From a phage: a stretch of 64,000 bases of DNA. The notes under the pieces are model-generated. The model saw nothing but the letters and a program-made list of their open reading frames with translations. It searched no databases and had not been told where the DNA came from. The position numbers and the translations under genes are program-made. Shown one piece after another: positions 8,690 to 19,131 of the stretch. The stretch lies in assembly GCA_024672315.1 (NCBI GenBank), contig GCA_024672315.1_4714.1; one strand, given 5' to 3'. Within the stretch, counting starts at the first letter, position 1. Every line of letters starts with the position of its first letter.

Positions 8690-11476
8690 TTATCTTACGT
8701 TATTGCTATTCTGCTGTTCGCTGAACCAACCGTACACCTTGAGATCGGTACCGTATTTCAATGCGATATACGCATTCAATGCAGCACAGAACAAAGACAC
8801 GAATGCCCATATCAGCGAAGGATCAACATCTTCCGTTACCACCGGGAGAGTATTATCCGGTTCCCACGATGGAGAACTGTCCATGAACGTCGTGTACCAT
8901 TCCCGCCGTTGTTCTTCAGTGGTAAAGTCGCTATGAGGTTCCAACGCTTCTTTTGCCAGACGTCGATATTCGAACACATACGTTGCGAAAGCCGATGAGT
9001 TACCAGATTCGCCTTCATAGTTCGGATCCACCGCACAACAGAGTTCTGTGGAATCTAACAAAGCAATCGCTTGTGTGATGCTGTCGGCAGTGCCTGCACC
9101 ATAGAGCTCGATAGACCGCGAAAGCTTTTCACAGAACGTATTTAACGCGGCAGGATTGGACACCTGAAGGTCAAGGCCTAATGTCCACGGATAGTTACTG
9201 AACACGCCCGTAAACCGCGGCAGGACACCCAACAGATGTTGTCCGATTACAGCACGGTTATAAACAGCCCGGTTATAGACTTGAAACGCAGCCTCCAAGG
9301 CTTGGTTATAATGACGACGAAGTTCGTCACGCGAGTTGCGGAATCTGTTTGCCGCAAGACTCGTGGCTGCGACGCTACAAACATCGTAATTGGTGGACGA
9401 GAGCACAGTTTCGTTAAGATCGAACGATTCCTGTTTCAACGATCCGCTAACCGCTGCTGCTTCGCTGTTTGCTTTATCGACAACTGTACTCAAAGCGTTG
9501 ATGTAACGCTTAGCCCGGACTTCCAGCCATTGTGCGATACCGAGAACATCCACAGCGGCTTTAGCAAGGTCACGTGCGTTCACGATTTCGTTCTTCAATG
9601 CCCCTAAACCTTTATTCTCAGGCGAAGAGGCTTGTTGACGAATCATGCTGTTCAACATGGTAAGCAGATTATCCAACTCATGTCCACTGACCTTGTTACG
9701 TGCATCGGTAACTGGTCCTTGCAGGAATTTACGACAACCATCGTTGTATCGAATCAGTTTGTCCACATCGATAGATTCGTTCGTGGATTCCTTGAACTGA
9801 TCCTTCAATTCTTCACGGTAGTCATGGATTTCACTTGCGAGATTATCGATAGTGATACCATCGTGTCCAAGAAGAACTTTATTGAAGTTACCTTTCTCGA
9901 ATGCAAGAGCAAGACCTTCACGAATCTTAGCGAGTTTATCCTGATCGAGTTCGCGACCGTTCGATAGCTCTTTCACTTCCGAGCTGATTAGTGCCGCAAC
10001 GTTACCCAGATTGTCGGTAACGCCTTTGAATGTTCCCGACCAGATCGTTCCTGCTTCAGCATATTTCGCAATGGTCTGAATACCGACGGTGTGCAGCGAC
10101 GCTAAACGTTTCTTCGTGCCTTCGGTAAGCAGAGCGTCTTTAGCTCGCGTAAGCTGGCTGTTATTCGCTTCCGCCTGCTGAATCGCCGCTTTCGCACTTC
10201 CATTACGCCAGCTCTTAACCAGCCAATCGACCAAACGTTTTAGGATGTTGACGGTGTATTCCATCGTCCGCCGTAACGTTTCCCACGCGCTTTCTGCGGT
10301 ATAGATGCCGTACCCTTCCTGCACGAGATCGGTACGTGTGTATCCGTCGGCCGCTTCGATTTCTTCTTGCGTTTTATCCCAAAGCTCTTCGCTACGAACA
10401 GCAGTAGCGGTTTCAGATACCGACATAACAAGCTCAGCAACAGCTTCAGCGTAAGTCAGTACGGTACGCACACATTGCACTAACATGCGCTGGTAAACGA
10501 TACGTGCGTTTTGCAGACGTGCGATAACCGCTAAATAACCGATGTTATCAAGATTTTCATCGGTTTGAGCAGATTCAACGCGTTCTAACAGTTGTTTAAC
10601 TAGCGCCGCTGTTTCTGGGTAATCGTTCACGACGTCACGCATGATTCGTGATGCGAAAACCGCAGTACCTAAAACGGTGAGAAGTGTTTTACCGTCCCAT
10701 TCTTTCGGTGCCGCTACCGATTCAGCAGGGATGAGATTTCCCGCTTGGTCGAAGTACGGCATAAGGACATTGATATCAGTCGACGGAACAGCAGTAATTG
10801 CGTTGTACTCTTCATCCACGCCATCGTTGCCAGACGGTTGTAATGCGAGCGCTTGTTCGAGGATTTTGCGGTCAACAGCGTAAAGCGCCGACAGAGCCTG
10901 TGTTACCGCAACCAGATCAACGATCGGCGACCAGAGCTGTGCGAGCTTACCTTCGTATTTCTGTACAGCGATAGCAAGGTCTTCTTTTACGTCTGGATGA
11001 TCGATCAAACCACCCAATGTTTCATGGATGGCAGAAAAACGTTCAGAATGCGCTTGAGTCAATGCGGTAAAATCGTCAACGTACGACGCATTTTCTTCAA
11101 GACGCGTAAGTTCCTGCTCCAGAAGATCTTTTACTTGCGTGGCGGATGCGTTTCTCAACTGTTCCCCGATAATCGCGATGGCTTTATCGACAACACGGCA
11201 GGCTTCATTGAAACCGGTCGTTGAAGGTAACTCGGTCCATAATGCCAGCGGCTTACCTTCCATTGCGTCAGGAAGGGAATATGACAGCATTGCTAGTTGT
11301 TGACGTGATACCTGTTTGTCACGATGTAATGTTTCTTTCAACGCCAGAAGCTCATCAAGACCCACGCTGCTAGGGATCGTGGGATGTGATACGGCGTTGA
11401 TATTTCCTGTCAATGACTCAAGAACCAATAAACCATTTTCAGCGGAAGATAACCCTGCTTTAAGGTATTTGTTCAT
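8690..11476 (-). CDS. hypothetical large alpha-helical protein (928 aa)
   Basis: Long ORF, helical/coiled-coil-like composition; convergent with 5634..8627; GGAG RBS sits directly 3' of a perfect 12-bp hairpin. Confidence 0.85.
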   Translation of the reverse strand: MNKYLKAGLSSAENGLLVLESLTGNINAVSHPTIPSSVGLDELLALKETLHRDKQVSRQQLAMLSYSLPDAMEGKPLALWTELPSTTGFNEACRVVDKAIAIIGEQLRNASATQVKDLLEQELTRLEENASYVDDFTALTQAHSERFSAIHETLGGLIDHPDVKEDLAIAVQKYEGKLAQLWSPIVDLVAVTQALSALYAVDRKILEQALALQPSGNDGVDEEYNAITAVPSTDINVLMPYFDQAGNLIPAESVAAPKEWDGKTLLTVLGTAVFASRIMRDVVNDYPETAALVKQLLERVESAQTDENLDNIGYLAVIARLQNARIVYQRMLVQCVRTVLTYAEAVAELVMSVSETATAVRSEELWDKTQEEIEAADGYTRTDLVQEGYGIYTAESAWETLRRTMEYTVNILKRLVDWLVKSWRNGSAKAAIQQAEANNSQLTRAKDALLTEGTKKRLASLHTVGIQTIAKYAEAGTIWSGTFKGVTDNLGNVAALISSEVKELSNGRELDQDKLAKIREGLALAFEKGNFNKVLLGHDGITIDNLASEIHDYREELKDQFKESTNESIDVDKLIRYNDGCRKFLQGPVTDARNKVSGHELDNLLTMLNSMIRQQASSPENKGLGALKNEIVNARDLAKAAVDVLGIAQWLEVRAKRYINALSTVVDKANSEAAAVSGSLKQESFDLNETVLSSTNYDVCSVAATSLAANRFRNSRDELRRHYNQALEAAFQVYNRAVYNRAVIGQHLLGVLPRFTGVFSNYPWTLGLDLQVSNPAALNTFCEKLSRSIELYGAGTADSITQAIALLDSTELCCAVDPNYEGESGNSSAFATYVFEYRRLAKEALEPHSDFTTEEQRREWYTTFMDSSPSWEPDNTLPVVTEDVDPSLIWAFVSLFCAALNAYIALKYGTDLKVYGWFSEQQNSNNVR

Positions 11477-11557: not shown

Positions 11558-14350
11558 TTACGCTAATTTACCGAAACCGGCTTTCTGTAGTTTCTCGTTG
11601 ATCAGTTTTGCTTCAGCGAAAACATAATCACGATACGCAGTGACTAATCCATCCACCCGTGAACGCAAGGCTTCTTCGAAGCTATACCACGCAGCGATTT
11701 CACGAATCTGTGCGTTGATATAATCAACGGTTGAGCGAAGCTCGGTTGCGTTTTCTTGCGGGATGGCTTTCACCTGGCGAGCAACGTCATTTAAACGACG
11801 GAACTGTGTTTCGATTTCTTTAAACTTACTGTCGGCAAGTTTGCTGAATTCGTCACCGGAACGGGTAAATAACAGATAGCTGTTGCCGTCAAGTGCGGTT
11901 GCTAACTGCTGAAGTACGTTGGTGTCCGGATACACAGGAGTACCGCTTTGCAGTACTTTCTCACCGAATTCCGCGAAGTCCTTCGGCGGTAAGTGTGCAG
12001 ACGTTGTTAACTCGTTGAAACGGAAAGTCAGCGAATTATCATACAGCATCCGGTACGCTTCCATACCCTGTTTCATAGTACCGGCCAGGTTAGCCAGACG
12101 CGGAGCAATCTCGCCTTCTTTAGCGCGTTTCTGGTCTTCTAACGCCCCTTCGAGTTCTTTACACTGGTCGTTCAGATACACGATACGATCGGGACGCAGA
12201 CGACGCATCTCACGAAGAATAGTATCCAGCTTACCTTCCTGGAAATAACCTAACGTTAATGACGTACACGCTTGCTGAAGACGATCGAACACCGGTAAGG
12301 TCACCATCTCCTTACGGATACCATCAACAATCGCAGAAACAGCCGAAAGTTTCTGTTCGGTGGTTAATGGAACGTCAGAGACCGACTTGCTGGGCGCACC
12401 AACAACGTTACGCATTGCGTCGGTATCCTCGGTTTTATCAACCTCTTTACGAACATGCTCATCAGGAACATAAACGTTCGCGTTACGTTTCGCCTGCTTG
12501 ATGGCGTCGTTGGCCGCTTTTTCGGTGGCTGCTACGCTATCAGCACGTTTCTTCAAGAGTTCAATAATCCAGAGCAACAGACGACGAATCGCAGTATAGG
12601 CCGTCGTGATGATGACACCGATAACAGCCATCTTCATGATACCGAACGATTCCATGGTCGGCTCTAATGCCTGGTCTGGCATATACCGTTCACGCAGTTC
12701 CAGATAGATCTGCTCATCTGGTTTGCTGATCTCACCACGATGCGAAGTCCGATAGATGGCTTCGTCAATCTCAACAAGATCTTTGCGTGCCTGACGATCG
12801 GATTCTGTTAAGTAAGCACAACCGGATACATCATCTTCGAAGCTTAAGAATTTGAAGAAGTCGCTGACATCGATCTTGATCTTCTTCGTTTCATTGTCAA
12901 CGTTAATGAAATCCGTTTTACGAGACTGCTGTTGAATCTTAATATCCTTTATCGGTTTAAGCGCTTTGTCTTTTAATGCCTGCATGATCTGTTTCCAGCT
13001 GGCATCGCGTTCAAGAACAAGGAAATAGTTCTTGAGTTCGAATGCGCGATAGCGGGCAACAAGTTGTTCTACCTGGACATGAGCGAGTTGTACGTCCATC
13101 AGCCAACGCGACAGCGCAGAAACCAAACGGCTATACGCAAGCAGCGTCTGGTACGTCAGCTTCATGTGTTTCTCGTAGAGCTCGATGTCTCCGCCCTGGA
13201 TGTCGGCTGTCGGGTTCATTTCCTTCGTTGCTTTGAAGACTTGTTCGGCTTCATTCAGCATCTGCTCGAACTTGACTTCATTGAACGCGTTGAATGGTTC
13301 GGCCAGTTCGTTCATCCGATCGTGCAGTTCGCGAACCCAAGCTTCTTTGTGATTACGAATGACCGCATCAGCGTGGAGTTCGGTTTGATGTTTCTGTACC
13401 CATTCTTCAATGATATCCGCAGCTGCAACAACGCCCGTGTTGTCAGAAATCAATGGAATGACGTTAGAGAGCGTACCCGCACATGCTGGTGTTTTCCAAT
13501 GATCGTTAAGCGTGTTGCGGAACGTAATGATGTCCGTCATAGACGTAGTGATATCGAGGAACGTGTTACCGTTACGACTCATGCTTGTGATGTTTGTGGC
13601 AAACGTCTTTTGTTGTTCTACAACGAATGGAATCAACGCCATCAACCAATCAGCAATACATTTTGCTTTTTCTTTCAGGTTTTTGTCGGCGATTTCTTTG
13701 AGATTAATTGCGCCGCCGTAACCTGCAAGTTCGTTATACACATCGTTCAAGGTCATCTGCGCGTCAAGCATTTCTTTGAAACGCGGATAATCTTCCCCTA
13801 ACGCATCGATGATATCCTGGATAACGTCGTCGGTTGTAGCGATAAATTTCTTCGTGTCGACTTTAGATTTCCAGATTATTTTCACCGCTTCTTTCATAAC
13901 GGTGAACATGATCTGCCAAATACGCTTAATAAGTTCCCAGACTTTCTTCGCACCATCGACAAACAGTTTAGAGACCTTGGCAACGAATCCTTCCTGCACC
14001 AATTCAACGCCGTTACGTGATGGGATTTCCGTGAAGAAAGCATCCGGCAGTTGTTTCGGGAATGCGTCACCAAGACGCATACGTAGTTCCGGTACATCAG
14101 CACGAGAAATACCGCGTGTTACTAATTGTTCGTGAAGACGAACGTTTTCTTCACCGGCAGCCACGAATTCGTCAACATCGAAGGAGACCATTGTTTCCTG
14201 ATCTTCGGTGGTAACGACGCTTGAACCATCGCTGGTCTGGATGTCCTCGTCAGGGAACGCCATGAGCATACCGTGACGCATTTCAACCACTCCGTAATCG
14301 GTTGCTAAACCGAATTCGTTGTGATCGGGGGTAATAACTGGAATACTCAT
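11558..14350 (-). CDS. hypothetical large alpha-helical protein (930 aa) with a hydrophobic segment; tape-measure- or ejection-protein-like composition
   Basis: Long ORF; hydrophobic stretch MAVIGVIITTAYTAIRRLLLWII; Lys/Glu-rich helical regions; assignment by composition only. Confidence 0.85.
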   Translation of the reverse strand: MSIPVITPDHNEFGLATDYGVVEMRHGMLMAFPDEDIQTSDGSSVVTTEDQETMVSFDVDEFVAAGEENVRLHEQLVTRGISRADVPELRMRLGDAFPKQLPDAFFTEIPSRNGVELVQEGFVAKVSKLFVDGAKKVWELIKRIWQIMFTVMKEAVKIIWKSKVDTKKFIATTDDVIQDIIDALGEDYPRFKEMLDAQMTLNDVYNELAGYGGAINLKEIADKNLKEKAKCIADWLMALIPFVVEQQKTFATNITSMSRNGNTFLDITTSMTDIITFRNTLNDHWKTPACAGTLSNVIPLISDNTGVVAAADIIEEWVQKHQTELHADAVIRNHKEAWVRELHDRMNELAEPFNAFNEVKFEQMLNEAEQVFKATKEMNPTADIQGGDIELYEKHMKLTYQTLLAYSRLVSALSRWLMDVQLAHVQVEQLVARYRAFELKNYFLVLERDASWKQIMQALKDKALKPIKDIKIQQQSRKTDFINVDNETKKIKIDVSDFFKFLSFEDDVSGCAYLTESDRQARKDLVEIDEAIYRTSHRGEISKPDEQIYLELRERYMPDQALEPTMESFGIMKMAVIGVIITTAYTAIRRLLLWIIELLKKRADSVAATEKAANDAIKQAKRNANVYVPDEHVRKEVDKTEDTDAMRNVVGAPSKSVSDVPLTTEQKLSAVSAIVDGIRKEMVTLPVFDRLQQACTSLTLGYFQEGKLDTILREMRRLRPDRIVYLNDQCKELEGALEDQKRAKEGEIAPRLANLAGTMKQGMEAYRMLYDNSLTFRFNELTTSAHLPPKDFAEFGEKVLQSGTPVYPDTNVLQQLATALDGNSYLLFTRSGDEFSKLADSKFKEIETQFRRLNDVARQVKAIPQENATELRSTVDYINAQIREIAAWYSFEEALRSRVDGLVTAYRDYVFAEAKLINEKLQKAGFGKLA

Positions 14351-14787
14351 GCATTCTCTCCTTGCAGTGCGTTAGCGAAAGCTGTTGCAAGTTGTGCAAC
14401 CAGTTTCGGATCGACGCCTTCGATAACGTCAGGAAGCCCTGCGGTTTCTTGGTCACGAACAGCAGCTGCTAATAACAGCATGGTTTCAGGTGCGGTCGGC
14501 TCATGCACCATGCGGTAACGCAGGCACCAGAAGTAGCGAGCAACGTCTAACGCATCAGCCAGCCCAATAACCAGTACCTTGTTCAGCTTATCCAACCCTT
14601 CACGGATTTTAGGGAGATGCTCGCGAACGAAAATGCTATCTGCGGTCAGATCTTCTTTTTCAGCGAATACCGGCATGCTGTAACCAGCAATGTAACCTGC
14701 GGCAATACTTAATGCGCGGGTCTGTTGTTCGGCCGGGAAATCACGAACCAGGTCTTTCAGCTGAACGGCGAAATCAGAAATATTCAT
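14347..14787 (-). CDS. hypothetical protein
   Basis: 146-aa ORF; stop overlaps the start of 11558..14350 (ATGA). Confidence 0.75.
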   Translation of the reverse strand: MNISDFAVQLKDLVRDFPAEQQTRALSIAAGYIAGYSMPVFAEKEDLTADSIFVREHLPKIREGLDKLNKVLVIGLADALDVARYFWCLRYRMVHEPTAPETMLLLAAAVRDQETAGLPDVIEGVDPKLVAQLATAFANALQGENA

Positions 14788-14819: not shown

Positions 14820-16130
14820 TTAGGCGATAATGGAATCAAGAGTCGCTGCGGTTTTGAACAGATCGCTGTTCATTGTAGAAGAAAGGGCTTGCTGAATTTC
14901 TTCCTGTTTAACCGCCTTACGAACCCCAGGACGAAGGGCGATAGTCACCATTTGCATGAACGTACGGTTGTTGTTCATTTCTTTCAGTGTATCATCGATT
15001 GTTTTAATCGTGTCTAGCGTAGTTGAACGGATATCGTTAGGGAGATCGCGATCTTTCAGGCGTATAATCAGATCCTGTTTGATCTTACGGAATCGTTCCA
15101 TATCGTTATCGTAAATGTTGTATGTTGGATCTAACCAAACTGCAAGCGCCATAGCGGCAACAAATATTGCCATACCGAGAATATTAACCGAGGTGAAACT
15201 GATTGCAATCAGAATAGCCACGGCGGCATCTTTAATGAAGGAGAGCCAGAACATCGTTTTGGACTTCATGGAGTCTTTGCTATAAAGCCGATACATTTTA
15301 GCAAGCCCGCTAACGAGATACTCCCCACCACCATGACGCGTAGCGAACTGATCAGCCATGAATTCGGAAGCAACGTCGGTATATCGTCCAGCGTTATTTA
15401 CATTTCGTAATTGCATCGCTTTGTTAGATACGTAAACCGTGTACCAGACACTACCATCGTCTGAATCACTGATTTTATTTACGTCGACGTTGGTATCCAG
15501 CGTTTTGTTTAACGCTTTAGCCAGTTCGATACGTTTTACCTTATCGGTTGTCCCCAACAGTTCACGCTGCACGGTCATGATTGAGGCTTCGACACGAACC
15601 GTTTCCGACAATGTTTCGAGGAAAGTAAATGCGTGCCCGATTTCATGCAGCATTATGGCTGCTTTTTCTTCCGGAAGAAAGGGTTCTGTCGCTGTTAGCA
15701 GTTCATACGTGATGGCAGAACGAATCTTCAACTCTTCAAAGATACCGTAAACACGACCTTTTTCTAAATCGACGTAACCGACAGGCACATCTTTAATCTT
15801 CTTAAGGAGTGCGACACCATCAGCACCGCGCATCCATAACCGATGATAGTCTGCCAGGATCGTGTTGTTTGTCGAAATATCCGGCGGGTACACGTAGGCA
15901 TTCATCTGGCCCATTTTCACGTCGACCGAGAATTCGATGTTCAACCCCGTATAGCGTTTAACCATCTCGGTTAAATGTCCGTCCTTGAAAACGTTTAAAA
16001 CATCTTTTTTATCCAGTCCCTGTTTGCTTCTGAAGAACTCGGTCATTTCCTTGAACAAGGAACCATCCTGAAACTTGATGGCCTCCATCGTTAATTCGTC
16101 ATGACCATACACGCGTTGTAGTAATGACAT
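14820..16130 (-). CDS. HExxH zinc-metallopeptidase-like membrane protein
   Basis: 436-aa ORF; HEIGH motif (..AAIMLHEIGHAFTFL..) and a C-terminal hydrophobic region (FWLSFIKDAAVAILIAISF..AIFVAAMALAVWL). Confidence 0.6.
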   Translation of the reverse strand: MSLLQRVYGHDELTMEAIKFQDGSLFKEMTEFFRSKQGLDKKDVLNVFKDGHLTEMVKRYTGLNIEFSVDVKMGQMNAYVYPPDISTNNTILADYHRLWMRGADGVALLKKIKDVPVGYVDLEKGRVYGIFEELKIRSAITYELLTATEPFLPEEKAAIMLHEIGHAFTFLETLSETVRVEASIMTVQRELLGTTDKVKRIELAKALNKTLDTNVDVNKISDSDDGSVWYTVYVSNKAMQLRNVNNAGRYTDVASEFMADQFATRHGGGEYLVSGLAKMYRLYSKDSMKSKTMFWLSFIKDAAVAILIAISFTSVNILGMAIFVAAMALAVWLDPTYNIYDNDMERFRKIKQDLIIRLKDRDLPNDIRSTTLDTIKTIDDTLKEMNNNRTFMQMVTIALRPGVRKAVKQEEIQQALSSTMNSDLFKTAATLDSIIA

Positions 16131-16141
16131 TGTACACTCTC

Positions 16142-16159
16142 TAAATTTACGTAAATTTA
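16142..16159. promoter_or_regulatory. 18-bp perfect palindrome (operator-like) in divergent intergenic region
   Basis: TAAATTTAC|GTAAATTTA; ~12 nt upstream of the ATG of the HExxH gene (14820..16130) and ~190 nt upstream of the divergent exonuclease gene. Confidence 0.6.
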
Positions 16160-16351
16160 AGGGCTAATGGATCGGCTGGCCGCACCAATCACAATGTGTC
16201 CGCTGCTATGCAACGGCATTCATAGAAATACCTTTTGACGGTAACATCACCGTTCATACCCCAAGCAATAAGAGTGGTCGGTTAAAAACAACAGAACGTG
16301 GGGATGATATAGAAAATCACCTTTTAACACTTATTACGAGTTTATCAAGCC

Positions 16352-17851
16352 ATGAGCGAACAAGAACGAAAACCTAAGAAGAAACTGCTCGGTATTCAAT
16401 GTCGACACATCAGTTATAACGAAGCGAACGATGGCAGCAAGAACGACCTCATGATCGCAAAAGAGATCATGTTCTTTGATGATAACACACAAGCGACGAA
16501 TCTTCGCTTCTTCGAGAATTACAAACGTCCGTTTTGGGTGACGGTAGAGAGTAAACGCAAGAACAAATATAAAAAGGAAAGCGAGAAGCTCTCGCACGTG
16601 CGTCGCTACGATGTCCGTCAAAGTGAACTGGTTGAAAAGATCAGTTCGGTGCTTTATAAAAGACGTGCTGATGATAACACCCGTCTACAGCAGCTTGCAC
16701 GGAGTCCATACCTCTATGGCACGGACGTTAGCGCCAGCTGTTATTTAAAAACTCAGTACAACACAAAATGGCCGGAATACGTCGATAAATTACCCGCTTC
16801 CATTGCCTGTTTCGATATCGAAACCGACGTTGTCCATGGACACGGTAAGATCGTCTGTATGTCTATTACAATGGGATACAATGCGATACTTTGCTATACC
16901 AAGGACTTCGTTGGTCATATTCCGAATGCCATTGAGAAAACCCATGAGAAGATTCGATATTACCTGGCCGAACGTCTGAACACCAAAGAAGATCCTCACG
17001 CGTTCGAAAAATATCAGTACGATGTGCGAATCGTAGAAAGTCCGGCACAAGCGGTCATCCAATGCATGCAGAAGGTTCACGAATGGCAGCCGGATTATCT
17101 CCTTGGCTGGAATATCGCGTTCGATATTCCGCGCATGCTCCAGGCACTGAACGAAGAAGGGTATCGTCCCGAGGATGTTTTCTCCGATCCTCGTGTACCA
17201 CCTAAATATCGCATTGCTCGCTGGGTACCACCGAAGACCGACAAGGTATCTGCTTCAGGGCGTAAAACCAACCTTACCCTTGAGCAAACCTGGCCGATGT
17301 TTTATACGATGGCTACGTATCAGGTTATGGATGCGATGTGTGGTTATAAGTTCGTTCGTTTAGGAAGACCGGATGAGGGACGCTATTCACTCGATGCGGT
17401 ATTAGAGCGAAATAAATGCCATACGAAATTAAAAGCAATTCCTGGTACAGAAGGGTTCACGGAGCTCGCCTGGCACGAAGAGATGCAAACGAACCATCAA
17501 ATCGACTACGGCGTATATAACCTTTGGGATAACCAGGGTATCGAGGCGTTGGACCAGAAAACAAAAGACTATTCGATGACCATCCCTATTCGTTTAGCGG
17601 CGTCGGATTTGAAAGATTTCAGTTCTAACCCTAAACGTATCTGCGATAAACTTTTCTTCGTTTATCTTAACCGTGGGGAAGTCATGGGATGCACCGCCGA
17701 CGACATGACCCAGGAAGAAGATAAGTGGGTTATCTCACGAACCGGACATATCGTCACATTGCCGTGCGATCTCATGGCGGACAACGGCATCCATCTCTTC
17801 TGGGATATGCCTAATTTAAGGAGCTATATTCGATTATTTGTTGCGGATTAA
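16352..17851 (+). CDS. DEDDy-type 3'-5' exonuclease protein resembling the proofreading domain of family-B DNA polymerases (no polymerase domain)
   Basis: 499 aa; Exo I-like FDIETD, Exo II-like WNIAFDIP, Exo III-like YNLWD in the right order; none of the polymerase motifs (DxxSLYPS, KxxxNSxYG, YGDTDS) in this ORF or downstream. Confidence 0.75.
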   Translation: MSEQERKPKKKLLGIQCRHISYNEANDGSKNDLMIAKEIMFFDDNTQATNLRFFENYKRPFWVTVESKRKNKYKKESEKLSHVRRYDVRQSELVEKISSVLYKRRADDNTRLQQLARSPYLYGTDVSASCYLKTQYNTKWPEYVDKLPASIACFDIETDVVHGHGKIVCMSITMGYNAILCYTKDFVGHIPNAIEKTHEKIRYYLAERLNTKEDPHAFEKYQYDVRIVESPAQAVIQCMQKVHEWQPDYLLGWNIAFDIPRMLQALNEEGYRPEDVFSDPRVPPKYRIARWVPPKTDKVSASGRKTNLTLEQTWPMFYTMATYQVMDAMCGYKFVRLGRPDEGRYSLDAVLERNKCHTKLKAIPGTEGFTELAWHEEMQTNHQIDYGVYNLWDNQGIEALDQKTKDYSMTIPIRLAASDLKDFSSNPKRICDKLFFVYLNRGEVMGCTADDMTQEEDKWVISRTGHIVTLPCDLMADNGIHLFWDMPNLRSYIRLFVAD

Positions 17852-17940: not shown

Positions 17941-19131
17941 ATGGAAAAATCTATACATACTCAAACTGGAACTATTGACTATCGCGATTCAGCATATTTG
18001 CCGTACACAAATCATCGTTATCGTATATTTGAAGATGGCGAGTTGTACGACTATAAAGAAGATAGGGTCGTCCCTTACGAAGTTGTAGACGGTGTCCCTT
18101 ATGTTGAAATCGATTGGTATAGAGGCATTGGAAAATACGATCTCGGTATGATCATTCTCACCGTTCTTGAACGGGTTGCTTTACCAGATCACCTTTACGA
18201 TGAAATTGAATCGTTGTTTGTGGACGGAGATCCGACTAACTTTTCGTATAGCAATCACATCTACCGTTTCCGTAATGGGCCGTTAGAAGTTGAGGGATTC
18301 GAAGGTTATTGTTATATTCCGTTTGCATCTCGTTACGCGATAAATAAAGAAGGACATTGTATTAGTCTTCTTTCGTTGGATCCTATCACGTGGACGAAAA
18401 CGGTTCAGCAAGGCACACGTCTTGGCGGATACGCTTATCGTAAAGTGGTTCCTGATAGCGGGTTTACACCGCAGTTGTATCGTCACCGAGCTATCATGTT
18501 AGCGTTTACGAGATATGATGCTAACGTTGTGAACTTAACCGTAAATCATAAAAACGGAATTAAAGGTGACGATTGGTTTGACAACCTCGAATGGGCGACA
18601 TATGCCGAGAACAATCAACATGCTCGTATGGCAGGGTTGTGTATAGGTACGTCAAAACCTGTTTTGGTTTATGATTACCGTGCACGAATCGAACGTCGTT
18701 TTAATAGTATCGCAGAAGCGGAACGTGCTTATCCGTACGTACCGAAAGGACGTTTCAAATGGTGGGTAAACAATCCCCCGAAACGTATCCCAGAATGCGA
18801 TTTATACATCAAGTTTGCCACGGACAATACGCCTTGGCCAGAGTGGAAACTTGGAGAAGATCGTCGTGTCGAGGACACCGATGGTCGCGGTATTCTCGCT
18901 ATTAATAAAGAGACGAACGAACGACATGTGTTTCCATCAGTAACTGCTGCCGCAAATGCGTTAGGAATCTCCTGGATTACCGTAAGACGTCATTGCGATC
19001 GTCGTGCAGTACCTACGAAACAGCCTTGGTGTTTTCGTTATGCTGATGATATTGCCGCTATGCCCGATTTCGATGTTAGTAAATTAGTTCCTAAGAAGAA
19101 GCGTGTATTTAATGTTCCATTAGAACGATAA
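17941..19131 (+). CDS. HNH homing endonuclease
   Basis: 396 aa; HNH signature VNHKNGIKGDDWFDNLEWATYAENNQHA; GAGG RBS; immediately downstream of the exonuclease gene. Confidence 0.8.
   Translation: MEKSIHTQTGTIDYRDSAYLPYTNHRYRIFEDGELYDYKEDRVVPYEVVDGVPYVEIDWYRGIGKYDLGMIILTVLERVALPDHLYDEIESLFVDGDPTNFSYSNHIYRFRNGPLEVEGFEGYCYIPFASRYAINKEGHCISLLSLDPITWTKTVQQGTRLGGYAYRKVVPDSGFTPQLYRHRAIMLAFTRYDANVVNLTVNHKNGIKGDDWFDNLEWATYAENNQHARMAGLCIGTSKPVLVYDYRARIERRFNSIAEAERAYPYVPKGRFKWWVNNPPKRIPECDLYIKFATDNTPWPEWKLGEDRRVEDTDGRGILAINKETNERHVFPSVTAAANALGISWITVRRHCDRRAVPTKQPWCFRYADDIAAMPDFDVSKLVPKKKRVFNVPLER

Follow-up and report, generated by a model that had tools for sequence, protein, structure and literature searches.

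Little is known of what most of the dozens of proteins injected by nucleus-forming jumbo phages do, and the field has yet to learn how the membrane-bound early-infection (EPI) vesicle forms, stays closed and later empties its content into the phage nucleus. The locus described here raises the question of what a phage gene does when its product combines a putative zinc-peptidase motif with a strongly hydrophobic segment. It lies in a 64-kb stretch of DNA (the window), whose source phage is a Goslar-like chimallivirus, a giant E. coli phage. Nucleotide identity to Goslar is 93.8% over a 3-kb region, and the protein is 95.6% identical to Goslar gp067 at the amino acid level (19 substitutions). 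An earlier note on this DNA had picked out a 436-aa minus-strand reading frame with an HEIGH motif, read it as a metallopeptidase-like protein and considered it unusual among phage genes. The reading frame and the motif are there (Table 1), but within this lineage the gene is not unusual: the Chimalliviridae have it as core gene cg22 (Table S3, PMC10299810), and a profile search finds 3,631 representatives of 50%-identity clusters. Earlier annotations of the family say only virion, structural or head protein, and some GenBank records automatically label homologues as beta-barrel assembly-enhancing protease. A literature search found nothing relevant linking M48, metalloprotease or assembly-enhancing protease to jumbo phages or Chimalliviridae, and in two recent reviews on nucleus-forming jumbo phages neither a protease or peptidase nor a transmembrane protein is mentioned.

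The relationship to other phages is clear. The protein matches PHROG 2767 over residues 12-432 (E 1.2e-79), and tblastn matches include PhiKZ gp84 (E 3e-12, 94% of length), 201phi2-1 gp145 and SPN3US-type gp45. Homology to PhiKZ gp84, Goslar gp067 and RAY gp286 extends over the full length, and in these as well as in 201phi2-1 gp145, EL gp52 and SPN3US gp45 the propeptide is followed by the catalytic domain, then the hairpin and then the helical domain, as here. Two larger metagenomic proteins (P0181 and P0191) have the domain at their C-terminus, and no informative N-terminal Pfam domain was detected in them. JADA, the trigger of Avs5, proved to be another protein.

Is this protein an enzyme? 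Across all six-frame stretches that reach 100 aa or more (27,652 aa in total), HEIGH is the sole HExxH, and since about one is expected by chance, the motif is not significant alone; its weight comes from conservation. Among 144 homologues that share only ~27% identity, H162 is kept in 143 and E163 and H166 in all, and in a set of 194 sequences just one lacks HExxH. The earlier note would have given up its reading if there were no match to a metallopeptidase fold and homologues did not keep this motif; as they do keep it, that test does not refute the reading. A third zinc ligand, which it had proposed to look for, has a candidate downstream in E256, part of an E-x-x-A-D motif in which E256 and D260 are kept in 144/144 homologues. 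Most of the 194 sequences have a spacing of 94-95 residues between HExxH and E-x-x-A-D, and dN/dS is 0.07.

HExxH together with a downstream Glu in E-x-x-A-D as third ligand points to family M48, one of several that the earlier note had named. In alignments, the HEIGH region corresponds to H335-E336-x-x-H339 of ZMPSTE24 and E256 to E415 in the ZMPSTE24 stretch RRFEFQAD; the HExxH also aligns with those of HtpX and BepA, and E..AD is invariant in the E. coli M48 paralogues BepA, LoiP, YcaL and HtpX as well. The gathering threshold of the Pfam M48 family PF01435 is 20.3 bits, and the protein misses it with a score of 10.8 (E 0.45). Of 31 relatives, 20 match this family at E<=1 (best 2.5e-5), and one metagenomic relative reaches 19.0 bits. 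In hhalign, a profile comparison with the four E. coli paralogues gives a probability of 87% and an E of 3.9e-6 over 35 columns only, and with single HtpX or BepA sequences the probability is only 43-61%. No NCBIfam family was found for the protein, its relatives giving only weak HtpX matches (E ~0.05), and a Foldseek search of the full-length model against the PDB returned noise (best E 0.45). Among E. coli proteins, those nearest to it by profile and predicted fold include BepA, LoiP and YcaL, which are proteases of the envelope. Taken at the level of sequence, the protein looks like an M48-like zinc metalloprotease of the gluzincin group, a candidate enzyme with an active site that does not change throughout a very large and very divergent family.

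Table 1. Features of the candidate protease gene and its surroundings (positions in the 64-kb window)
Feature	Position	Strand	Remarks
Downstream gene 3, gp064 orthologue	8690..11476	-	virion protein
Downstream gene 2, gp065 orthologue (PhiKZ gp86 + extra domain)	11558..14350	-	vertex binding complex component
Downstream gene 1, gp066 orthologue (PhiKZ gp85)	14347..14787	-	inner-capsid vertex binding complex component
CDS, 436 aa, ATG to stop	14820..16130	-	orthologue of Goslar gp067, PhiKZ gp84, 201phi2-1 gp145, SPN3US gp45
C-terminal helical domain, residues 340-436	14823..15113	-	opens with Y-D-x4-R-x2-(R/K)-I-(R/K) motif (Y340, D341, R346)
Hydrophobic helical hairpin, residues 292-334 (TMFWLSFIKDAAVAILIAISFTSVNILGMAIFVAAMALAVWLD)	15129..15257	-	Kyte-Doolittle and AF2 helices
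Catalytic domain, residues 17-290	15261..16082	-	putative alpha/beta M48-like gluzincin fold
EFMAD (E256 to D260), residues 256-260	15351..15365	-	predicted third zinc ligand, M48 motif E-x-x-A-D
HEIGH (H162, E163, H166), residues 162-166	15633..15647	-	predicted two zinc-binding His and catalytic Glu, active-site helix
N-terminal propeptide, residues 1-16 (MSLLQRVYGHDELTME)	16083..16130	-	ends in prohead-protease site T-M-E16/A17
Divergent intergenic region, 221 bp	16131..16351	.	between protease gene and DNA-polymerase exonuclease gene
18-bp perfect palindrome TAAATTTACGTAAATTTA	16142..16159	.	11 nt upstream of ATG, immediately 5' of GAGAG ribosome-binding site
Divergent neighbour, gp068 orthologue	16352..17851	+	DNA polymerase exonuclease-domain protein (Goslar annotation)

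Compared with M48 enzymes (HtpX, BepA/YfgC, LoiP, YcaL, Ste24/ZMPSTE24, Oma1) and the related M56 family (BlaR1), the protein differs in more than its score below the Pfam threshold. Its second His and third ligand lie 90 residues apart, compared with 61 in E. coli BepA. In HtpX and Ste24 the transmembrane helices precede the catalytic domain or lie within it; here the hydrophobic hairpin follows that domain, and a further helical domain is added at the C-terminus. Unlike M48 enzymes, it would also be packaged in a virus capsid with the help of a cleavable targeting propeptide. Minigluzincins such as proabylysin, projannalysin and selecase are soluble and ~100 residues long, whereas the predicted domain here has ~270 residues with extra helices; proabylysin and projannalysin are zymogens, blocked by their own C-terminal tail.

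The evidence for packaging comes from the orthologues. The predicted propeptide ends in a site that follows the S/A/G-x-E motif of prohead proteases, here as T-M-E16/A17. Across the family, E16 in P1 is kept in 142 of 144 sequences and P3 is A, S, G or T in 135 of 140; P1' is A or S, and P4 is mostly L, I or V. Mass spectrometry data of Goslar virions contain a semi-tryptic peptide, AIKFQDGSLFKEMTEFFR, which was assigned to gp067 and starts at A17, and SPN3US gp45 is cut at ASE-20, in a column that aligns with the E16 site. In purified Goslar virions gp067 is found with 19 peptides (47% coverage), among them the HEIGH-region peptide AAIMLHEIGHAFTFLETLSETVR, and at 32-76 copies (~48, or about 50), in a table where proteins modelled at 55 copies are estimated at 51-124. 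SPN3US gp45 is present in virions and in tailless heads, and the records of the PhiKZ and 201phi2-1 orthologues annotate them as head or virion proteins. A protein of this family is not seen in the ordered capsid or vertex complex structures of Goslar and PhiKZ. For the protein of the window phage, the predicted packaging into the head and processing by the prohead protease are supported by its orthologues.

The C-terminal membrane segment of the earlier note stands in part. There is a hydrophobic segment of the membrane type, but it is internal and followed by a helical domain of about 100 residues. Kyte-Doolittle averages over 19-residue windows are at least 1.6 from residue 292 to 336, with a peak of 2.31, and the AF2 model places helices at 291-313 and 317-332. 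A hydrophobic segment is found at this position in 183 of 194 homologues. The longest uncharged run there has a median of 30 aa in the family (range 11-57), and the PhiKZ and 201phi2-1 orthologues have a shorter hydrophobic stretch of ~20 aa. Alternatively, the stretch might be buried within the capsid as an interface to another protein. The domain that follows it in the sequence is all-helical in the model; R346 of its opening motif is invariant, and Y340 and D341 are kept in more than 90% of sequences.

The position of the gene is conserved as well. It heads a block of four minus-strand genes, as the earlier note had it, and lies upstream of genes of the gp85/gp86 type. That gp066 is part of the vertex binding complex comes from a cryoEM preprint on Goslar and a paper on the capsid of PhiKZ. 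The gp065 and gp064 orthologues each have one TM-like segment (residues 570-588 and 886-907, respectively), and Goslar gp064 is present in virions at ~110 copies. The divergence from an exonuclease gene, also claimed before, holds with the gp068 orthologue, an assignment that comes from the Goslar annotation; Pfam gives no match for this reading frame at E<=0.001. The same pairing is found in 201phi2-1 (gp144/gp145) and SPN3US (gp44/gp45), in SPFM16 and in the metagenomic relatives L008 and L009. PhiKZ has an extra gene, gp83, in between. The gp84/gp145/gp45/gp067 group shares the exonuclease-gene pairing, followed by vertex-complex genes of the gp85/gp86 type.

Between close relatives, the protease gene is the most divergent of its neighbourhood, with 50% amino acid identity compared to 100%, 99% and 86% for its neighbours; the 50%-identical allele belongs to an otherwise near-identical relative from Salmonella samples. 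Such divergence in an otherwise conserved neighbourhood can be taken as a host-facing hint.

In PhiKZ, orf84 has no transposon insertions after selection compared to 9 unique sites in another table, which we take to be the unselected pool. Orf85-86 are also without insertions yet deletable, for which the authors blame polar effects, and because of this the result for orf84 is ambiguous. Core gene cg22 apparently confers fitness in PhiKZ.

The perfect palindrome that the earlier note saw just upstream of the gene is present. It is unique in the window, which has only four perfect palindromes of at least 16 bp, none of them longer than this one, and its sequence is unchanged in Goslar, L008 and L009; L008 keeps it although the spacer upstream has a 44-bp deletion and many substitutions. 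It was not found upstream of PhiKZ gp84, 201phi2-1 gp145 or SPN3US gp45. The intergenic region as a whole is 98% identical to that of Goslar, compared to 93.8% for the 3-kb region. No sigma-70-like promoter was found in the spacer, which is expected, as the phage has its own RNA polymerases. An Rfam search of the intergenic region gave no family, and the 111 nt that lead up to and span the start did not fold better as RNA than shuffled sequences (z -0.96), so that a structured leader is unsupported. An element common to PhiKZ and 201phi2-1 upstream of gp84 and gp145, CTTTATGATT, has a counterpart ~90 nt upstream in the window, TTTCTATGAAT. The window shows no enrichment of this type of motif (at most 2 mismatches allowed: 17 matches vs 25.5 expected), and TTTCTATGAAT was dropped as a promoter for this reason.

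What would a head-packaged protease with a hydrophobic hairpin do? To the reading that it is an M48-like zinc metalloprotease built into the head, ejected with the DNA and acting at the host inner membrane or the EPI vesicle membrane, we give even prospects. The short propeptide would act like a T4 capsid-targeting sequence, and the mature enzyme would sit inside the capsid, possibly near the vertex binding complex that is encoded downstream in the operon. It would leave the capsid together with the DNA; the hairpin may then insert into the host inner membrane or the EPI vesicle membrane, leaving both soluble domains on one face. There the enzyme would presumably cut unfolded or membrane-proximal polypeptides, like other M48 enzymes, and its substrates could come from the host, as proteins of the envelope or a membrane, or from the phage, as proteins injected alongside it. 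A narrower form of this reading is speculative, and we consider it improbable as it stands. In this form, gp067/gp84 would be a membrane-embedded protease of the EPI vesicle, injected with the genome and anchored by its hairpin, which cleaves co-injected inner-body proteins or host membrane proteins; this cleavage would be needed for the vesicle to form or stay stable, or for the genome to pass from it into the chimallin nucleus as that arises. If that were true, the divergence between the E. coli- and Salmonella-associated alleles would mean that the enzyme has adapted to substrates in the host membrane or evades a sensor of the host.

Parts of this scheme have precedents. The T4 internal proteins (IPs) and Alt carry a capsid targeting sequence of 10-20 residues that is removed by the prohead protease gp21, and the present protein is like them in being head-packaged with a short propeptide (16 aa here; family median 12) that ends at a prohead-protease site. 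The authors of the SPN3US work likewise compare gp45 to the capsid-targeted proteins of T4. The T4 proteins differ in that they lack a hydrophobic hairpin and do not belong to the metalloproteases, and their ejection is established, whereas here it is inferred. Another comparison is Pb2 of phage T5, a tail tape measure protein that has a metallopeptidase motif besides its hydrophobic segments and acts in a muralytic or fusogenic way. Both are virion proteins that join membrane-inserting segments (predicted in the present case) to a zinc-peptidase motif, but the present family consists of head proteins and is of the M48 type.

Rather than after ejection, the enzyme might work in the prohead, as a morphogenetic clean-up peptidase that degrades unfolded propeptide fragments after the serine prohead protease has acted and before DNA is packaged; the hairpin would then be a tether to the vertex complex, or one of the nascent prohead to a membrane. 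We regard this as rather unlikely, for all that fits it. M48 and minigluzincin active sites take only unfolded chains. In these phages the portal, the capsid protein and internal proteins lose long propeptides of 100-250 residues, and that of gp54 is further broken up. However, the known fragmentation sites match the motif of the serine protease, and no non-canonical cleavages have been reported. The gene is co-transcribed with the vertex-binding-complex genes gp066 and gp065, and ~48 copies are of the order of the 55 expected at one per non-portal vertex protomer, but the protein is absent from the ordered vertex complex of Goslar or PhiKZ and stays in mature virions at full mature length. 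The lack of transposon insertions in PhiKZ orf84 would agree with a role in assembly, whereas one would not expect a housekeeping enzyme of assembly to diverge more than any of its neighbours when the relatives compared are nearly identical.

A role in entry that begins outside the inner membrane appears doubtful. Here the protein would be a periplasmic or envelope factor, released early to cleave outer-membrane, lipoprotein or periplasmic host proteins and so clear the path of the DNA, comparable to BepA, LoiP and YcaL or as an analogue of T5 Pb2. The envelope proteases among its nearest E. coli relatives, the automatic annotation of some homologues as beta-barrel assembly-enhancing protease and the strongly different alleles of the E. 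coli-phage and Salmonella-sample relatives are in line with this, but SPN3US gp45 is in tailless heads and not in the tail, which implies an exit only after or with the DNA. We find it very unlikely that the protein is a purely structural internal head protein whose zincin motifs are a non-catalytic evolutionary relic. The existing annotations as structural or head protein agree with it, and protease activity is a prediction; relics, however, lose catalytic and zinc-binding residues of the kind that are invariant here in 144 sequences at ~27% identity, and neither a single loss of HExxH in 194 sequences nor the low dN/dS suggests such decay. The suggestion in the earlier note of a toxin-like effector, taken here as a protein free in the cell and not part of the virion, which cleaves a host or phage target, fits the metalloprotease motif and the membrane segment but is hardly credible for a protein whose orthologues are abundant in purified virions and heads, whose gene lies within a head-protein operon and whose conserved propeptide is cleaved by the prohead protease.

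A protease ejected from the head to act at a membrane would have consequences for how the early infection of these phages can be studied. With a core gene, tens of packaged copies, a predictable single-residue knockout (E163A) and a predicted membrane anchor, the protein would offer an enzymatic handle on the EPI vesicle problem. If it is a head-maturation peptidase instead, capsid maturation in giant phages would use two proteases of different classes, which would also be new. In the annotation of the family, the label of cg22 could change from virion structural protein to M48-like metallopeptidase, head-packaged.

The gene that heads a minus-strand block of four in this phage reads from ATG to stop and encodes a protein with HEIGH at residues 162–166 and a second motif, EFMAD, at residues 256–260. 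[quoted passage not shown] An earlier note, made from the sequence alone, took it for a metallopeptidase-like protein, and the HExxH motif behind that reading has held up well. It is present in 193 of 194 family sequences, and in 187 of these E-x-x-[AS]-D comes after it, at an almost constant distance of 94–95 residues. All of 144 homologues (mean column identity 27%) keep E163, G165, H166, E256, D260, R265 and R346, and 143 keep H162. E-x-x-A-D is the third-ligand motif of M48 and is invariant in E. coli BepA, LoiP, YcaL and HtpX. A search of PDB sequences with the family profile matched ZMPSTE24 (E 0.0018); the alignment takes in the HExxH helix and RRFEFQAD and places E256 of EFMAD, the candidate third zinc ligand, on the zinc ligand E415. 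Of 31 relatives, 20 match Pfam Peptidase_M48 (best E 2.5e-5), the window protein itself staying below threshold (10.8 bits versus 20.3). A profile-profile alignment to the four E. coli paralogues reached a probability of 87% (E 3.9e-6), confined to the edge strand and active-site helix. By every sequence criterion tested the protein is M48-like, but divergent, and it is predicted to be a zinc protease.

The same note called such a gene unusual among phages, which does not hold for this phage lineage. By tblastn the family occurs in 268 phage records, including PhiKZ gp84 (labelled "structural head protein"), 201phi2-1 gp145 (on record as a virion protein from mass spectrometry, with a noted resemblance to EL gp52) and SPN3US gp45. 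A family profile search of 1.84 billion cluster representatives returned 3,631 members at E<=1e-3, of which 1,799 reach E<=1e-30; with thousands of members, this is a very common gene of the phage lineage and no oddity. In the core-genome table of chimallin-encoding phages it is cg22 (Goslar gp067, PhiKZ gp084, RAY gp286), a "putative virion structural protein" that carries no mark of uniqueness to these phages (PMC10299810). It also belongs to PHROG 2767, a PHROG of unknown function. The best 150 family members nearly all have 410–480 residues and match over their whole length. Two longer proteins have the family domain at the C-terminus (P0181, 1237 aa, match 812–1229; P0191, 839 aa, match 409–836); no Pfam domain was found in their N-terminal parts, and either gene fusion or an artefact of gene calling may account for them. 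Both the family and its place in the virion are already known, and a few GenBank records automatically label homologues "beta-barrel assembly-enhancing protease". The searchable literature and two recent reviews do not take up its identity as an M48-like metalloprotease bearing a membrane-type hairpin.

In CsCl-purified Goslar virions, gp067 was detected with 19 peptides and 47% coverage (2026 Goslar structure preprint, supplementary table), and the HEIGH-containing peptide was observed. The label-free estimate in the same table is 32–76 copies per virion, about 48; gp065 and gp042, modelled at 55 copies per virion, are estimated there at 51–124. The main text of the preprint does not mention gp067, nor is it among the 28 modelled proteins, and PhiKZ gp84 does not appear in the text of two PhiKZ cryoEM papers. 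The SPN3US orthologue, gp45, belongs to the head proteins "of unknown function" and is found in virions and in tailless heads. [quoted passage not shown] The results and Table 2 of that paper give this propeptide 20 residues, while its discussion swaps 20 and 24 between gp45 and gp225; the gp45 sequence (MGHWQKHITSLADAKAVASE) confirms 20. The cleavage glutamate falls in the same alignment column as E16 of the window protein (T-M-E/A-I-K). In the set of 144 homologues the site has E at P1 in 142 sequences, A/S/G/T at P3 in 135 of 140, mostly L/I/V at P4 and A or S at P1', a motif that fits the published S/A/G-x-E (LSxE) specificity; the median propeptide length is 12 residues. In the Goslar virion peptide list, the semi-tryptic peptide AIKFQDGSLFKEMTEFFR, assigned to gp067, starts exactly at A17. 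No gp067 peptide across the E16/A17 site is among the Goslar peptides listed, which proves little. It is very probable that the protein is a packaged and processed M48-like metalloprotease.

Residues 292–336 score above 1.6 on the Kyte-Doolittle scale in 19-residue windows (peak 2.31), and the AlphaFold model has two helices there, 291–313 and 317–332. In 183 of the 194 family sequences a hydrophobic stretch follows the catalytic domain; the uncharged run has a median length of 30 aa. The membrane segment proposed in the earlier note is present as a hydrophobic segment, but it is internal and not C-terminal, since a helical domain of ~100 residues lies behind it. Family members differ in the number of hydrophobic residues (about 20 to about 57), and the full-length protein is predicted to form a single compact unit (pTM 0.77); the most economical topology is therefore a hairpin or re-entrant anchor that would keep the two domains on the same face. 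[quoted passage not shown] Since the gp065 and gp064 orthologues also have TM-like segments, this head operon encodes three proteins with such a segment among its four. At the position of the homing-endonuclease-type gene, two metagenomic relatives (L008 and L009) have an ORF of 368 aa whose HNH_3 match is weak or faint.

Features of the protease locus in window coordinates
Feature	Position	Strand	Remarks
gp064 orthologue	8690–11476	-	virion protein; one TM-like segment, residues 886–907, Kyte-Doolittle 2.05
gp065 orthologue	11558–14350	-	virion protein; one TM-like segment, residues 570–588, Kyte-Doolittle 1.68
Protease gene	14820–16130	-	436 aa; first gene of the block
Perfect 16-bp palindrome TTTCTTCCGGAAGAAA	15665–15680		inside protease gene, just upstream of HEIGH codons
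Spacer	16131–16351		221 bp
Perfect 18-bp palindrome TAAATTTACGTAAATTTA	16142–16159		11 nt 5' of protease ATG, just before GAGAG ribosome-binding site
Goslar gp068 orthologue	16352–17851	+	annotated DNA polymerase with exonuclease domain; divergent from protease gene
Perfect 16-bp palindrome GTTTCGATATCGAAAC	16809–16824		inside polymerase gene
NUMOD1/HNH_3 homing-endonuclease-type gene (Goslar gp069 orthologue)	17941–19131	+	directly after DNA-polymerase exonuclease gene

The coordinates confirm the palindrome, the position at the head of the block and the divergent exonuclease gene as first described. Only four perfect palindromes in the window measure 16 bp or more, and TAAATTTACGTAAATTTA exceeds the others in length; TTTCTTCCGGAAGAAA and GTTTCGATATCGAAAC are probably due to chance. 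The spacer is better conserved than the coding DNA on either side: it is 98% identical to Goslar, versus 93.8% for the region, and nearly identical in L009. In L008, although 44 bp of it are deleted and many positions substituted, the CCCTTAAATTTACGTAAATTTAGAGAGTGTA block with the palindrome is untouched, which suggests that the block is under constraint; one of the two intact blocks is AAGGTATTTCTATGAATGCCGTTGCA, the other the palindrome plus ribosome-binding site. Such constraint could come from a protein that binds the DNA as a dimer or from an element linked to translation. The spacer contains no sigma-70 promoter and no Rfam family, its RNA fold is not significant, and there is no equivalent palindrome 5' of the PhiKZ, 201phi2-1 and SPN3US orthologues. 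The Pseudomonas phages PhiKZ (locus L002, 5840–5940) and 201phi2-1 (locus L003, 5417–5640) have a common CTTTATGATT element about 25–35 nt upstream of the orthologue's start codon. A similar TTTCTATGAAT lies about 90 nt upstream of the window gene, a motif type that is not enriched in the window.

The protease gene varies between close relatives more than its surroundings. In L009, from contigs of Salmonella samples, the DNA-polymerase exonuclease protein is 100%, gp066 99.3% and gp065 85.9% identical to the window, and gp067 only 50%, falling to 24–40% over residues 26–150 and 28–36% in the hairpin region. Nucleotide identity is 97.8% over the polymerase gene, the spacer and the first ~34 codons of the protease gene; the spacer and the first 25 of these codons hardly differ at all. 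No nucleotide alignment is found across the catalytic domain and hairpin (L009 5103–6060 against window 16028 to 15080, codons ~35–350), and downstream identity is again 83%. By this comparison there is a mosaic break within the gene. In the gp065 orthologue, long runs of 100% identity to L009 are broken by blocks of 36–52% at residues ~151–175, 251–300 and 451–500, so the mosaicism reaches into a VBC gene. In L008, gp067 is again the most divergent gene (77.5% versus 88–98%). Between the window and Goslar dN/dS is 0.07, indicating purifying selection, with dN 4 to 28 times that of the neighbours, and the active-site residues are unchanged among the relatives compared. A constant frame around a catalytic body that is exchanged or evolves fast is met more typically in host-facing proteins than in assembly machinery, an argument that is only circumstantial. 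In PhiKZ, orf84 had no transposon insertions after selection versus 9 unique sites in the other insertion table, taken as the unselected pool. Since orf85-86 also lack insertions yet can be deleted, for which the authors invoke polar effects, essentiality of orf84 is suggested, not shown.

The propeptide would target the protease into the prohead core, and the enzyme would be kept inside the capsid, perhaps close to the vertex complex. It would then leave the capsid with the DNA; the virion RNA polymerase and inner-body proteins do so in these phages. The hairpin would next insert into the inner membrane or the membrane of the EPI vesicle of early infection. M48 enzymes such as HtpX, BepA, Ste24 and Oma1 characteristically act on unfolded or membrane-associated polypeptides, and for this reason the expected substrate would be a membrane-proximal protein of host or phage. 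We give even chances to this course as a whole, from packaging and ejection with the DNA to anchoring and membrane-proximal proteolysis, and slightly less than even chances to the membrane step after ejection. The main rival is a second protease that would clean up long excised propeptides inside the prohead; operon context and copy number would suit it, but allelic divergence, retention in the mature virion and the fact that no non-canonical cleavages are reported make it unlikely. A role in entry through the envelope sits poorly with the head location and is improbable, and a catalytically dead structural protein, against which the invariant active site speaks, is slightly less probable again. 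The free toxin-like effector of the earlier note is contradicted by the virion and head proteomics of the orthologues and deserves very little credence.

Compared with M48-type proteases, the protein of the window would be one re-fitted as capsid cargo. It offers a handle, testable at the level of a single residue, on the roles of injected proteins in nucleus-forming phages.
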